Assembly (NCBI RefSeq): GCF_056746865.1
Contig: NZ_CM163382.1
DNA: 64,000 nucleotides
Direction: 5' to 3' (one strand)
Below, one piece after another: positions 19,938 to 31,742 of the stretch. The notes beneath the pieces are model-generated. The model had not been told where the DNA came from. It saw only the letters and a list, made by a program, of their open reading frames with translations, and made no database searches. Made by a program: the position numbers and the translations under genes. How positions within the stretch are numbered: position 1 is the stretch's first letter; the number at the start of each line of letters is the position of its first letter.

Positions 19938-21248
19938 TTATCTGGCCTTGCTCGCCATAATCTCGATAATCTGCCGATCCGTTTGCTGCATCGAATGGCT
20001 TGCTAACGCACACAGGTTGGCAATCGACTGCTCAACATCATGCGCCACAATCCCTTCATTGCCGGTCACGGCGGTATCATCCAGCGCCATTAACACCGCT
20101 TTCCACGCAGCCGAAGCACTGGTCGAAACCTTCATCGCGCAGCTGTTCGACGCACCATCGCAAATCATGCCGCTGACATCGCCGATCATACTGCTGATCG
20201 CCATCGAAATGGTTTCATAACGCCCATCCACCAGCCATGCCATCCCGGCGGCGGCCCCCATTGCTGCGGTCGTTGCGGCACAAAGCGCAGACAAACGCGG
20301 TAACTGGTTATGGATGTAAATCGCGCTCAAATGCGAAAGCATCAGCGCACGCGCCAGCCGTTCATCATCCGCTCCGAAGTGTTCTGCTACCACCACCACA
20401 GGCATTGTTGCGGTGATCCCTTGGTTACCCGAGCCGGAGTTACTCATTGCCGGAAGCGTAGCGCCGCCCATACGCGCATCGGATGCCGCGCTGGTACGAA
20501 TCACAATGGATGAAGAGAGATCTTTCGCCAGCAAACCGCGCGCGCACTGTTTTTCCAGCGTCGCACCAATATGCAGCCCCCAGTTACCGCTCAAACCTTC
20601 CTGCGATAACGCACAATTTAACTTCGCAGAATCGAGAATAAAGCGGATCGCCGCAAACGGGACTTCATTGACGAACTTCAGGATCTCAGCCAGCGTCGTC
20701 CTGGAAAGCACCGTCAGCGGCGACTCTTGCTCGCCCTCTGTCACACACGCCTGCTGGGTAAACACCACACCATTGTGCGTCTCAATATGCACAATGTTGG
20801 TATGCCCGCCGACAATGGTGACACACGCCCACTTCTCACCGTTCCAGACTTTGGCGCGTGAGAAGAGGATTTCATCGCAAGGTTCCTGGATCTTAACTGA
20901 GACTTTCCCCGCCGCCAGCAGTGCTTTGGCATCGGCAATTGCCTGCGCAGTTGCATCTTTCAGCACTTCCAGCCCGGCGTTAGCATTTCCACCTAACGCT
21001 CCCAGCGCCGCCGCAATCGGCAGCCCCACCATTCCCGTGCCGGGAACGGTGACGCCCAGACCGTTCTTCATCAGATTTGGCGAAACCCAGGCTTCTACAC
21101 GTTCAACCGGACCTTCCAGTTCAGCCGCAGCAACCGCCGCTGCCAGCGCCAGTGAAATCGGTTCAGTACACCCCAGCGCCGGTTTTACCTCCTCCTGAAC
21201 GGCGAGGATGTAACGCTGCCATAACGGATTTAAAGTCGAATCAAACAT
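19938..21248 (-). CDS. cyuA: L-cysteine desulfidase CyuA (YhaM)
   Basis: 436-aa ORF recognised (serine dehydratase-like/UPF0597 family). Confidence 0.9.
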
Positions 21249-21275
21249 ATTAAAAACCTTAAAATTTCAGGTAAA

Positions 21276-22607
21276 TCAAGAAAATGCCAGGAACGGAGAA
21301 ACACAAAGCAACAAACCAGTGACGATAATCAGGTACAGAGACATCCCTTTGTATTTGTGCAATGCCGGTACTTTGTAAACCAGCCACGCCGGGATCAGGC
21401 ACCCTACCATGCCGAAAATCGGGCTACAGATAGAGGTGAAGCTCAACACCGGGGCGTTCAGTACGATGGCGCTCCAGGCCAGCAAAATGGCGAAAATCAT
21501 GATGCCGCGCTGAACGAGATTTTCGTTAATCTTCTCGGCAGGTATCTTGCGACGCAGGATGTTCATTACGATCCCTTGCGTTGCTTCGCGAAAGCCTAAA
21601 TAGACGCCAAAGAATGCAGTCATTACAGCAAAGATATTGAGAATGACGCTGACCACTTTCACCCACGCTGCGCCGTCACCGCTAATAAACTGTGCGGCAA
21701 TCGCCAACGCGGAAATATTCTGCTCGTAGGCTTTTACCGCTTCGTCATGTCCCATCGCCAGCGTGAACGACACGGCGTAGAAAAAGACGGTGACAAACAA
21801 AATGCCAAACGCGATATTCATTGCCCGCAATGCTTTATGCCGCGCCACTTCAATTGATTTTTCCCGCGAGCGATAAGAGATCACCATCGGGCTTAACGTC
21901 TGGATAAACAGAATCGACGTCAGGGTAAACGGCAGCGTAATAATGGCGTTTTTCACCAGCAGCCCCAGCGGCGGTAGCGAACCGACGTTATACAGATGCC
22001 ACATTCCCACCATCGACACGCCCAGCGCCGCGACCACCAGCAGCTTGGTCAGCACCATGCCCGTCGAAATTTTGAATAACAATTTCTCGCCGCGTGAGGA
22101 GATCGCCACCAGAATGCAAATCAGTACCAGACCATAAAAGGGACTGTCTGACAGCAACCCTTCCGTCACGCCGAAGGTATGCAGGTAGGAAGCACTATCG
22201 TTGGTGATGGCGGTGGAATAGACGAACATCCAAATCACCAGCATTACGAAATAGAGTGCACCTAACAGGATGCCCCAGTTTTTACCTAAATAGCCGCTAA
22301 TGACGCTCGGGTAATCTTTACATTCTGGTGATTCTGCCAGCGTATTAATAAACAACCGCTGAAACAGATACATTGCCGGGTAACCAATCACCGATGAGAG
22401 CAAAAATACCCACAATCCCATCAAACCGACCTGCACCGGGAGAAAAACAATCCCCGCGCCAATCGCCATCCCGATACTCATAATCACCCAGCCGGTGTCA
22501 GTACTGTCGAATTTGATCGCTTCTCGCCACTCGCTCTCACTCATTCCAGCACGACCCGCCGGGGTCGAAGCGTCTGCAATGACGCCTTTATTCGATGCAA
22601 TTTCCAT
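21276..22607 (-). CDS. cyuP: Cysteine/serine transporter CyuP (YhaO), HAAAP family
   Basis: 443-aa multi-TM ORF recognised; upstream of and co-oriented with cyuA. Confidence 0.9.
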   Translation of the reverse strand: MEIASNKGVIADASTPAGRAGMSESEWREAIKFDSTDTGWVIMSIGMAIGAGIVFLPVQVGLMGLWVFLLSSVIGYPAMYLFQRLFINTLAESPECKDYPSVISGYLGKNWGILLGALYFVMLVIWMFVYSTAITNDSASYLHTFGVTEGLLSDSPFYGLVLICILVAISSRGEKLLFKISTGMVLTKLLVVAALGVSMVGMWHLYNVGSLPPLGLLVKNAIITLPFTLTSILFIQTLSPMVISYRSREKSIEVARHKALRAMNIAFGILFVTVFFYAVSFTLAMGHDEAVKAYEQNISALAIAAQFISGDGAAWVKVVSVILNIFAVMTAFFGVYLGFREATQGIVMNILRRKIPAEKINENLVQRGIMIFAILLAWSAIVLNAPVLSFTSICSPIFGMVGCLIPAWLVYKVPALHKYKGMSLYLIIVTGLLLCVSPFLAFS

Positions 22608-22831
22608 AATTTCTCGCTCAATATTTTGTAGGGCTTATTATTTTTTTCCGAGCCGCATCAAGGCGATATGCGGTCTACGTTTTTGCAGGCGAGTTATTAG
22701 AATAAAGAAATGATACGCGCGAGGTCAGAGAAAATCTTCACAATCAAGACTTTGAAATAACGGAGATGGATAAGAATTTTCTACTAAATTAATCGCAAGA
22801 GAATATTCATTCTCTATTTGCGGCAGATCAC

Positions 22832-22858
22832 AAAAAAAAAGGTGCACATTTGTGCACC
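22832..22858 (-). terminator. Rho-independent terminator of the tdc operon, downstream of tdcG
   Basis: ggtgcacaaatgtgcacc hairpin followed by a T9 run on the minus strand, 25 nt past the tdcG stop. Confidence 0.8.
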
Positions 22859-29636: not shown

Positions 29637-30626
29637 TTAAGCGTCAACGAAACCGGTGATTTGAGAGACGCGAGAAAGATCGATATTGCCGCCGGAAATA
29701 ATACTGACGGTTTTTCTGTTTTGAATATATTGGTCTAATTTACCGCTTAATAATGCAGCACATGCCAGAGCGCCTGCGCCTTCGGTGACGACTTTATTGC
29801 GCTGAATTAAGGCAATCATACTGTTTCTGATTTCATCTTCGCTGACCAGCACGATGTCATCGACTAATTCACGAACGATTTCGTAAGTTAAATTACCCGG
29901 GCGGGAGACATCACAACCATCCGCCAGGGTGCCGGTAGTTCGGTGCGTGGTTATTTCTCCGGAGTGGAAAGAAGCCGCCATGCCGTGAACGTTTTCTGAC
30001 TGTACGCCAATAACACGAATGGTCGGGTTAATAGATTTTATTGCCACCGCAATACCAGCAATTAAACCGCCACCACCAATTGGCACAATCACGTTATCGA
30101 CATCATAGAGATCTTCCATAATTTCCAGACCAATCGTTCCCTGGCCAGCAATCACTTTCGGATCATCGTAAGGTGGGATAAAAATACGGCCTTCCATTTC
30201 GACAATTTCGCTCACTTTAGCGATAGTGTCGTTGAAGTTATCACCATGCAGAACGACTTCTGCGGAGTAGTCGCACGTTGCCGCTACTTTGGATTTCGGC
30301 GCGCCTTTTGGCATCACCACTTTACCGTCGATACCCAGCATCGCGCAGGAGAGCGAAACCCCTTGCGCATGGTTGCCCGCAGAGCAGGCCACTACACCTT
30401 TACGTTTTTCCGCATCGGTCAGTGAACTTAATTTATTAAATGCGCCACGAATTTTAAATGAACCGGTACGCTGCATGTTTTCGAATTTGAGGAATATTTC
30501 ACCTTTGCAACGTTCACTAAAATAGTTGGAGCGAGGCATGCCTGTTTTATAAATTCGCCCAGCCAGTCGTTGTTTAGCTTCAATGATGTCATCAATAGCA
30601 ACCGGGAGATCGTATGTAATATGCAT
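29637..30626 (-). CDS. tdcB: Catabolic (biodegradative) threonine dehydratase TdcB, PLP-dependent
   Basis: 329-aa ORF; PLP-lysine motif TGSFKIRG. Confidence 0.95.
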
Positions 30627-30724
30627 TATAAAACCTCTTAGCCTGAATTAAATATGTAGGTAACCGTAACCGACACCTGCAAAACAGACAGGTGGATTAT
30701 TTATGTTTAAATAAAAACAAATAA

Positions 30725-31663
30725 CTAACCAACTTCAATTAATTGCCTTCGTCTACACCCATTATAAGATGAATACTCTTTGGCTAATTCCACCAAAACC
30801 GATGCTGCTTTTTTAATACGATAATTTTTCGACCATACCGCGGCATATTGTGCCACAGGTAATGTTTCTTCAACCGGAATAGTAATAAATTGATTTGAAC
30901 CAAAAGGTGATGTCATATCACAAGGAATTACAGTTAAGAAATCAGCATTGAGAACAAGATTATAAATTGTCACGACTGAGTCGGTTTTAACGATGTTTTC
31001 AATACTGATGCCATTTCTTTGTAACGTGGTGAGCAGCTCGCTGTAGTACCCCATATTGGTTTGTGGCAACACCCACTGTTCGTTCTTCAACGACTCCAGC
31101 GTGGTGGTGCCGGTGCATGTTCGGGACTTACTGGCTACCAGCACAAACTCGGACTCGAACAGCGGCTCAACATGTAAATCCTGAAGCTTCATTTCTGCGC
31201 TTAACGTACCAATCGCAAAATCCAGTCGACCGTCGCGGATTGCCGGTAAGAACGAAGACAGTTGCGCTTCATACATAGAAACCTGCGCTTTCGGGAACAC
31301 CTCTTTGAACTTGTTGATCATCCCGGACATAAAAGTAAAACCAATCAATGAAGGAAAACCAAATGAGACTTCCACCACCGCCTCAGAAGACATACCGCTT
31401 ATCTCATTAACCATATTTTTCATTTCACGGGTAATGGATTCGGAACGGGAGAGTAACAATTGACCGGCAGGTGTTAATGTTACACCGGTATTTTTCCGCA
31501 CCACTAATTCCACGCCAAAATAATCTTCAATATCGTTAATGATTTTACTGACAGCCGGTTGAGTTAACCCTAATTCTTTTGCAGCCGAGCCGATAGAACC
31601 ACTTCTAATGACTTCCTGAAAGACTACCAGGTGCTGCGTTTTCGGAAGAAGAATAGTGCTCAT
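30725..31663 (-). CDS. tdcA: LysR-family activator TdcA
   Basis: 312-aa ORF; N-terminal HTH; first gene of the tdcABCDEFG transcription unit. Confidence 0.93.
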   Translation of the reverse strand: MSTILLPKTQHLVVFQEVIRSGSIGSAAKELGLTQPAVSKIINDIEDYFGVELVVRKNTGVTLTPAGQLLLSRSESITREMKNMVNEISGMSSEAVVEVSFGFPSLIGFTFMSGMINKFKEVFPKAQVSMYEAQLSSFLPAIRDGRLDFAIGTLSAEMKLQDLHVEPLFESEFVLVASKSRTCTGTTTLESLKNEQWVLPQTNMGYYSELLTTLQRNGISIENIVKTDSVVTIYNLVLNADFLTVIPCDMTSPFGSNQFITIPVEETLPVAQYAAVWSKNYRIKKAASVLVELAKEYSSYNGCRRRQLIEVG

Positions 31664-31726
31664 AACGACCTACGTTAATTACCTCATTGACGGCATGAAG
31701 TGTATCAAAATGAAATGAACAGGATA

Positions 31727-31742
31727 TGTGCGACCACTCACA
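31727..31742. promoter_or_regulatory. CRP-binding site in the tdc promoter region
   Basis: tgtgcgaccactcaca is a near-perfect TGTGA-N6-TCACA palindrome about 65-80 bp upstream of the tdcA ATG. Confidence 0.7.

Follow-up and report, generated by a model that had tools for sequence, protein, structure and literature searches.

Adjacent tdc and cyuPA operons in Escherichia coli very probably became neighbours by placement and not by duplication of one another

The closest described counterparts of the locus analysed here are two amino-acid catabolic operons of Escherichia coli K-12, tdcABCDEFG (b3118-b3113, b4471) and the two-gene cyuPA (yhaOM). Each has a promoter of its own, and cysteine switches on cyuPA while leaving tdc unaffected (PMC9040844). 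A pairing of a transporter with an iron-sulfur serine dehydratase, like that of tdcC and tdcG, is also found in E. coli sdaCB; these two genes are direct neighbours at another chromosomal site, whereas tdcD, tdcE and tdcF stand between tdcC and tdcG. Yersinia ruckeri cdsAB, an operon of a transporter plus a desulfidase, is credited as the earliest cyuPA homolog to be described (PMC9040844). A published phylogeny, in which an SdaA/B outgroup roots CyuA, traces CyuA back to Terrabacteria and infers that Proteobacteria acquired it horizontally (PMC12647591). In what follows, biochemical functions and the fact that tdc and cyuPA are induced independently are taken from the literature, and sequence features, homology levels and synteny come from our analysis.

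We analysed a 64,000-nucleotide stretch of contig NZ_CM163382.1 (assembly GCF_056746865.1), hereafter the window. The open reading frame list and the RefSeq annotation agree on nine intact minus-strand genes in one orientation, cyuA, cyuP and tdcG-F-E-D-C-B-A, and so confirm the original prediction of nine co-oriented genes in two adjacent functional units. Two reading frames were trimmed to the annotated ATG, the tdcG start moving from 24253 to 24247 and that of tdcD from 28270 to 28258. Pfam and NCBIfam/TIGR profiles gave a domain content consistent with the annotated identity for all nine proteins. The genes and two flanking features are as follows.

19812-19918, no strand assigned: inverted REP element pair between yhaL and the cyuA end (sub-threshold Rfam naRNA4, REP-derived, matches; 12-nt perfect inverted arms)
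19938-21248, minus: cyuA (yhaM), [4Fe-4S] L-cysteine desulfidase, 436 aa (RefSeq annotation; Pfam SDH_alpha E 1.8e-58; PDB 9he0/9fsl E 3e-28)
21276-22607, minus: cyuP (yhaO), L-cysteine importer of HAAAP/STP type, 443 aa (annotation; TIGR00814 full model E 5e-151, 503 bits)
22883-24247, minus: tdcG, [4Fe-4S] L-serine dehydratase III, 454 aa (NCBIfam NF011614 1054 bits; PDB 4RQO E 1e-141)
24319-24708, minus: tdcF, RidA-family enamine/imine deaminase, 129 aa (Pfam Ribonuc_L-PSP E 4e-45; annotation)
24722-27016, minus: tdcE, 2-ketobutyrate/pyruvate formate-lyase, 764 aa (Pfam PFL-like and Gly_radical; 80% identity to PflB)
27050-28258, minus: tdcD, propionate kinase, 402 aa (Pfam Acetate_kinase; 44% identity to AckA)
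28284-29615, minus: tdcC, threonine/serine:H+ symporter, 443 aa (NCBIfam NF010152 985 bits; TIGR00814 573 bits; 50% identity to SdaC)
29637-30626, minus: tdcB, PLP-dependent catabolic threonine dehydratase, 329 aa (Pfam PALP; annotation)
30725-31663, minus: tdcA, LysR-type activator, 312 aa (Pfam HTH_1 and LysR_substrate; annotation)
31978-32196, plus: tdcR, divergent small activator, 72 aa (annotation; translation)

Compared with K-12, the nine proteins differ by 0-4 residues each. The tdc operon agrees with that of K-12 in the order and lengths of its genes, in the CRP site of its promoter and in its terminator; its proteins differ by 0-2 residues each, and the DNA shows no more than strain-level polymorphism (6-58 nucleotide differences per gene). 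The two cyu genes, their 27-bp gap and their upstream spacer likewise match, and one residue difference in CyuP and four in CyuA amount to nothing of substance. Of 5426 complete E. coli genomes, 5349 carry the locus; as the original prediction also stated, it is well known, textbook E. coli metabolism, and adds little in itself. Gaps of 13-98 bp separate genes within each unit, versus a 275-bp spacer of 37% GC between tdc and cyuPA, and along the block the base composition changes in mosaic fashion. In the strains that match best, an IS1 or ISEcp1 element is inserted in this spacer; the window has neither.

Our preferred explanation of the arrangement, to which we assign a probability of about 0.9, is that two neighbouring catabolic operons, each transcribed on its own, came to lie next to each other and were not copied from one another. 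Regulatory features of the two units are as follows.

31727-31742, no strand assigned: CRP activator site of the tdc promoter, centred at -43.5 (equal to RegulonDB site TGTGAGTGGTCGCACA with its 42-mer context, PMC3105977 Table S4)
22832-22859, minus: predicted intrinsic terminator of the tdc operon (8-bp stem with 5 G-C pairs, 4-nt loop, U9 tail)
22817-22832, no strand assigned: CRP-like box about 217 bp upstream of the cyuP ATG (TTTGCGGCAGATCACA on the plus strand, TGTGATCTGCCGCAAA in gene orientation)
22608-22831, minus: putative cyuP regulatory region (alignment of 16 genera)

At the head of tdc, tgtgcgaccactcaca lies exactly at 31727-31742, with one mismatch to TGTGA-N6-TCACA (9/10 core bases). 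By pattern alone this is weak evidence, with five such matches in the window versus 1.8 expected. The sequence is, though, the reverse complement of the RegulonDB activator site of tdcABCDEFG at -43.5, and tdcA is among the known CRP targets recovered by SELEX (PMC3105977). The near-consensus site that had been predicted to head the tdc unit is thus borne out, and the promoter has what is expected of a CRP-activated one, namely a suitably placed site identical to a curated site with experimental support. Its position at -43.5 puts the transcription start near 31691 and gives a 28-nt leader. A sigma-70 consensus scan found no match at either expected promoter, and its 12 promoter-like sites were fewer than the shuffle mean of 17.1, an outcome that fits activator-dependent promoters.

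At the other end, 24 nt past the tdcG stop, the predicted terminator comprises the hairpin GGGUGCAC-AAAU-GUGCACC(U) followed by U9, the arrangement of a G+C-rich hairpin directly before a U tract by which intrinsic terminators are recognized. It is the only scanned site with a tail of at least eight T, and for the 57-nt terminator region the folding energy is -14.3 kcal/mol (z -2.4). The terminator originally placed at 22832-22858 is borne out as a sequence feature, with hairpin and U9 at 22832-22859. That cysteine acts on cyuPA and leaves tdc as it is (PMC9040844) lends indirect support to termination in the cell, though read-through from tdc into cyuPA may occur.

Upstream of cyuP, the 16-genus alignment revealed a conserved block TTGTGA-N6-TTTCTC at 22727-22743, a -10-like TATCAT at 22710-22715 and an invariant CGCCTGC at 22685-22691, and these elements are conserved also in genera lacking tdc. 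In most genera, also where no tdc lies upstream, the CRP-like box keeps a fixed distance from cyuP, and it is listed under a SELEX-chip CRP peak in the yhaOM<-<tdcG spacer (PMC3105977 supplement). Whether CRP acts directly at cyuPA was left open by a 2022 functional study; both the SELEX entry and the conservation across genera bear on this question, and the conserved box of cyuPA suggests direct CRP control, a role that we infer. Two other candidates in this region were rejected. For a CyuR site, the best match to the published motif GAAwAAATTGTxGxxATTTsyCC was 15/23, a level common in the window background, and for a conserved RNA structure in the cyuP leader the consensus energy was -1.4 kcal/mol with zero compensatory pairs.

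Under the preferred explanation the locus works as follows. The CRP-dependent promoter, with its site at -43.5, drives tdcABCDEFG. By the published biochemistry, TdcC takes up threonine and serine, TdcB and TdcG turn them into 2-ketobutyrate or pyruvate, with TdcF dealing with the enamine/imine intermediate, TdcE yields propionyl-CoA or acetyl-CoA plus formate, and TdcD forms ATP. Transcription of tdc would stop at the intrinsic terminator 24 nt past tdcG, and that of cyuPA would begin within the 275-bp spacer. CyuP takes up cysteine, which the [4Fe-4S] enzyme CyuA turns into pyruvate, ammonium and sulfide.

We then compared the proteins of the two units. Pairwise BLASTP of CyuP and TdcC gave 25% identity over 436 aa (E 3e-27), so that the predicted paralogy of the two HAAAP transporters is clear. 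Yet the nearest paralog of TdcC is SdaC (50%) and that of CyuP is YhjV (45%), both located elsewhere on the chromosome, and the transporter tree joins CyuP with YhjV and TdcC with SdaC, each with 100% bootstrap. Against TIGR00814 (HAAAP, STP subfamily; curated cutoff 525.8 bits), TdcC and SdaC score 572.8 and 618.8 bits over model positions 1-397 of 397, whereas CyuP, which also matches the full model (E 5e-151), falls slightly below the cutoff at 503.2 bits, as does YhjV at 501.1 bits; Pfam Trp_Tyr_perm matches CyuP at E 0.07 only. Its homology is plain, and the tree puts CyuP on a divergent branch. Pasteurellales CyuP orthologs are 75-81% identical to E. coli CyuP, versus only 25% for TdcC, indicating that the split between CyuP and TdcC long predates the locus. 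CyuP and TdcC are old paralogs, probably both within the serine/threonine-transporter branch of the HAAAP family.

For the enzymes, the predicted relationship of CyuA and TdcG held at the level of profiles and structures and failed in pairwise alignment. BLASTP detected no similarity between the two (E 0.83), and hhalign of CyuA against TdcG/SdaA/SdaB alignments was not significant (probability 1.2%, E 0.045), the depth of the alignments (Neff 1.6-1.9) being too low. The sole local hhalign match paired CyuA C363 with TdcG C381. The whole Pfam SDH_alpha model (PF03313; cutoff 26.4) matches both, at 198.7 bits for CyuA and 308.4 bits for TdcG, which places both in the iron-sulfur L-serine dehydratase superfamily, and published structures agree with a distant relationship. 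TdcG in addition matches SDH_beta (E 7e-56) and TIGR00720 (723 bits), indicative of a single-chain (type 2) L-serine dehydratase, and its nearest paralogs, SdaA (74%) and SdaB (73%), both lie elsewhere on the chromosome. CyuA has no Pfam SDH_beta match and falls outside that family; in a phmmer search of PDB with CyuA, the Legionella pneumophila L-serine dehydratase 4RQO was unreached even at E 10, and the published identity of the two is 12.4%.

CyuA does align over residues 17-434 with Methanococcus maripaludis CyuA (PDB 9HE0, 9FSL; phmmer E 3e-28), an archaeal protein of only distant sequence similarity in which a fourth Cys ligand, itself not conserved, is added. Conservation extends to the catalytic residues and the cluster ligands: C323, C363, C370, C27 and E29 align with Cys287, Cys329, Cys336, Cys23 and Glu25, and the three cluster cysteines and the catalytic Cys and Glu of the N-terminal GCTE motif are invariant in 12 orthologs. 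By these residues CyuA belongs with the L-cysteine desulfidases. The two iron-sulfur enzymes share only an ancient catalytic domain.

Additionally, we examined gene neighbourhoods in the best 80 of 349 CyuA loci, a sample biased to close relatives. In 34 of the 56 cyuP-cyuA loci of other species tdc lies immediately upstream; 18 have no tdc upstream and four are too short to tell. The tdc-cyuPA order occurs in Escherichia, Salmonella, Citrobacter, Enterobacter, Lelliottia, Yokenella, Trabulsiella and Pseudocitrobacter, and cyuPA alone in Serratia, Hafnia, Edwardsiella, Proteus, Mannheimia and others. Another 23 of the 80 have cyuA without cyuP; the Klebsiella-type cyuA neighbours an NhaC-type transporter. 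The junction itself is variable. Among the loci tdcF and tdcG are present or absent, and Enterobacter-type tdc operons lack tdcG, with no tdcF or tdcG remnants at E 1e-3. In one Citrobacter (L071) a different cyuA cassette occupies the slot of cyuPA; there, no CyuP match was found at E 1e-5 (at least 45% identity), and the E. coli cyuP-tdcG spacer gave no blastn match at E 1.

The recurrence of tdc upstream of cyuPA in eight genera among these best 80 loci would also be expected if both operons formed one amino-acid-fermentation island moving between bacteria, as suggested by Zhou and Imlay (2022). We consider this unlikely, since the genera concerned are related and vertical inheritance suffices, cyuPA stands alone in 18 loci, the junction varies in tdcF/tdcG content and in the L071 cassette, and the base composition over the block is mosaic. 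An ancient module of STP transporter plus SDH_alpha iron-sulfur lyase, duplicated once into sdaCB/tdcC-tdcG-like and cyuPA-like forms that dispersed and were rejoined here by chance, would account for the pairing being seen three times in E. coli (sdaC-sdaB, tdcC...tdcG, cyuP-cyuA) and for the congruent coarse topologies of transporters (TdcC and SdaC versus CyuP) and enzymes (TdcG and SdaB versus CyuA). It is nonetheless quite improbable: 23 of the 80 cyuA loci lack cyuP, and in the Klebsiella type the NhaC-type transporter lies beside cyuA instead; YhjV, the closest CyuP paralog, has no enzyme gene of this kind beside it in E. coli; tdcC and tdcG are non-adjacent, with tdcG missing from Enterobacter-type operons; and CyuA is traced to Terrabacteria (PMC12647591). 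The original proposal that a local duplication of a transporter-plus-dehydratase module built the region, for which the homologous transporters, the common SDH_alpha domain and the adjacent, co-oriented units might speak, has next to nothing left in its favour, because adjacent copies should be mutual nearest paralogs and the paralog matrix and tree place these elsewhere (SdaC, YhjV, SdaA/SdaB), CyuP resembles its orthologs of other orders far more than it resembles TdcC, CyuA lacks SDH_beta and cannot be linked to TdcG by BLASTP or hhalign, and 18 cyuPA loci do without tdc.

The nearest paralogs of CyuP, TdcC and TdcG lie elsewhere, cyuPA occurs with or without tdc, cyuA occurs without cyuP and an alternative cassette exists in Citrobacter. 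We therefore regard cyuPA as a unit of two genes, complete in itself and carrying conserved upstream elements, that was set beside tdc in one Enterobacteriaceae group; we infer a single placement event. The region is thus an example of functionally related operons placed together rather than duplicated. We give even odds to the further idea that the gap from the tdc 3' end to yhaK is a swap site for cysteine-catabolic cassettes, with cyuPA portable together with its own CRP box, so that CRP control would be direct. Gene content at the tdc-yhaK junction varies among Enterobacteriaceae, which is relevant to differences between gut bacteria in hydrogen sulfide production from cysteine.

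The stretch between 17.9 and 34.7 kb corresponds to the E. coli chromosomal segment yhaJ-yhaK-yhaL-cyuA-cyuP-tdcGFEDCBA-tdcR-yhaB-yhaC-rnpB, and 5349 of 5426 complete E. coli genomes carry the region at ≥80% coverage (megablast, query 19500-32500). With gene names taken from the annotations of EECO1006 and K-12 MG1655, the nine minus-strand genes of the original prediction were confirmed at the following coordinates:

19938-21248, minus, cyuA (L-cysteine desulfidase)
21276-22607, minus, cyuP (cysteine importer)
22883-24247, minus, tdcG (L-serine dehydratase)
24319-24708, minus, tdcF
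24722-27016, minus, tdcE
27050-28258, minus, tdcD
28284-29615, minus, tdcC (transporter)
29637-30626, minus, tdcB
30725-31663, minus, tdcA

All nine are intact, differ from K-12 by 0-4 residues and contain the expected domains (Pfam, NCBIfam). The functional reading of the locus as adjacent cysteine and serine/threonine units is correct and previously published. Intergenic gaps measure 13-98 bp within each unit, and 275 bp (37% GC) separate cyuPA from tdc. The terminator proposed to end the tdc unit is real: a hairpin with a loop of 4 nt (GGGUGCAC/GUGCACC) begins 24 nt past the tdcG stop and is followed by nine U. The spacer carries no IS1 or ISEcp1 insertion in the window. The strains most similar to it have IS1 there (L001, the EECO1006 locus, 4611-5308; further matches H2-H8) and one strain has ISEcp1, which is why the top megablast matches span more bases than the query; in EECO1006 the insertion truncates cyuP slightly at its 5' end. 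The cyuPA end is marked by an inverted pair of REP elements without a clear hairpin-plus-U terminator (19812-19918, between yhaL and the end of cyuA; sub-threshold Rfam naRNA4 matches).

We examined whether the two units are related by duplication of transporter and dehydratase modules, as had been proposed. CyuP and TdcC are clearly paralogous by pairwise alignment (25% identity over 436 residues, E 3e-27), and each covers the full length of the serine/threonine-transporter model TIGR00814, with TdcC above the curated cutoff of 525.8 bits and CyuP, at 503, just under it. The claimed relatedness of CyuA and TdcG held for profiles and structures but not in pairwise comparison. BLASTP detected no similarity between them and hhalign, with shallow alignments, found nothing, but both proteins match the whole Pfam SDH_alpha model far over threshold and show parallel cysteine patterns (C323-X39-C363-X6-C370 in CyuA, C339-X41-C381-X10-C392 in TdcG). 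SDH_beta is present in TdcG only. CyuA aligns with solved L-cysteine desulfidase structures (E 3e-28), retaining their catalytic Cys and Glu and three cluster cysteines, and TdcG aligns with the Legionella serine dehydratase 4RQO (E 1e-141). Given the transporter homology and the common SDH_alpha domain, paralogy is therefore detectable for both pairs, that of CyuA and TdcG being very remote.

Duplication as the origin of the region is nevertheless unsupported, since the nearest E. coli paralogs lie elsewhere: SdaC for TdcC (50%), YhjV for CyuP (45%), and SdaA (74%) and SdaB (73%) for TdcG. TdcE is likewise 80% identical to PflB, and TdcD 44% to AckA. A bootstrapped tree joined CyuP, with its Proteus, Serratia and Mannheimia orthologs, to YhjV and TdcC to SdaC, each at 100%. 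Moreover, a published CyuA phylogeny with SdaA/B as outgroup inferred an origin in Terrabacteria and later transfer to Proteobacteria (PMC12647591).

The gene order in other species was surveyed with CyuA as query, one genome per species, and the best 80 of 349 loci (L010-L089) were probed with E. coli proteins. In 56 of these 80, cyuP lies directly upstream of cyuA; tdc follows immediately upstream in 34, is absent from at least 6.3 kb in 18, and four loci are too short for a decision. The pair occurs without tdc in Serratia, Hafnia, Edwardsiella, Proteus, Mannheimia and Rodentibacter, and also in Atlantibacter, Superficieibacter, Pluralibacter gergoviae, a Pluralibacter MAG, one Citrobacter freundii and Buttiauxella. 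On the tdc side, the content of the junction is variable: both tdcF and tdcG are found in Escherichia; tdcG without tdcF in Salmonella, Yokenella and some Citrobacter (L018, L022, L025, L026, L036, L055); and tdcABCDE only in Enterobacter, Lelliottia and a Pluralibacter MAG (L033, L035, L037, L039, L041-L043, L046, L051), where the E. coli protein probes found no remnants of tdcF or tdcG. In another 23 of the 80 loci, from Klebsiella, Raoultella, Kosakonia, Haemophilus and others, cyuA occurs without cyuP; its neighbours in Klebsiella are a transporter of the NhaC type and a Cys/Met PLP enzyme. In Citrobacter amalonaticus S646 (L071, 2600-9460) such a Klebsiella-type cassette, comprising cyuA (63% identity), a PALP enzyme, a RidA-like gene, an NhaC-type transporter and a Cys/Met PLP enzyme, replaces cyuPA in the yhaK-tdcG slot, where no cyuP remnant was found. 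These gene orders are most simply explained by cyuPA being a self-contained module that was brought beside tdc in one Enterobacteriaceae group. Across all 56 two-gene loci, CyuP is more conserved relative to E. coli than CyuA (mean identity 91% vs 78%).

Expression of cyuPA requires Crp, with direct action at the locus left open (Zhou and Imlay, PMC9040844), and a 2011 SELEX-chip study listed yhaO (cyuP) as a new CRP target with the box TTTGCGGCAGATCACA (PMC3105977). We aligned the region upstream of cyuP from 16 genera. The terminator hairpin differs genus by genus, and the conserved blocks come after it:

22817-22832, CRP-like box TTTGCGGCAGATCACA, abutting the tdc terminator at its U tract
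22727-22743, TTGTGA-N6-TTTCTC block, ~127 bp from the ATG
22710-22715, -10-like TATCAT, conserved as GTAT(G/C)AT
22685-22691, invariant CGCCTGC

In the box, GTGAT is nearly invariant, many genera keep 9/10 core matches, and the distance is fixed in most genera examined. Since these blocks are conserved also in loci without tdc, the alignment supports direct CRP action at cyuP through this putative site. The published CyuR motif gave no convincing fit to the blocks at 22685-22743, and no conserved RNA structure was found in the cyuP leader.

The 16-mer at 31727-31742, predicted to head tdc as a CRP site, has one mismatch to TGTGA-N6-TCACA. This pattern occurs five times in the window against 1.8 expected, a count reached by 3 of 100 shuffles, and a match alone is too common to serve as evidence. 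Read in reverse complement, however, the 16-mer is identical to the curated RegulonDB tdcABCDEFG activator site at -43.5, including its 42-base context (PMC3105977 Table S4), which puts the tdc transcription start near 31691 and gives a leader of 28 nt. Of the other four matches, three coincide with listed CRP sites (exuT, kbaZ and the tdcR-yhaB spacer). The last of these, at 32231-32246, is a second one-mismatch box, TGTGTTGAGGATCACA, entered in the SELEX table under the tdcA<>tdcR peak (PMC3105977); the one-mismatch match at 5507-5522, TGTGATACCGATCAGA, is linked to no listed site.

Base composition across 22883-34200 is mosaic: GC3 is 0.44-0.46 in tdcA, tdcB and tdcD and 0.56-0.62 in tdcC, tdcE, tdcF and tdcG, resembling cyuPA, while GC is 31-36% in tdcR, yhaB and yhaC. 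Close E. coli paralogs exist for three of the higher-GC3 genes: SdaC for tdcC, PflB for tdcE and SdaA/B for tdcG. The RNase P RNA gene rnpB occupies 34308-34684 (minus strand; Rfam RF00010, 318.6 bits).
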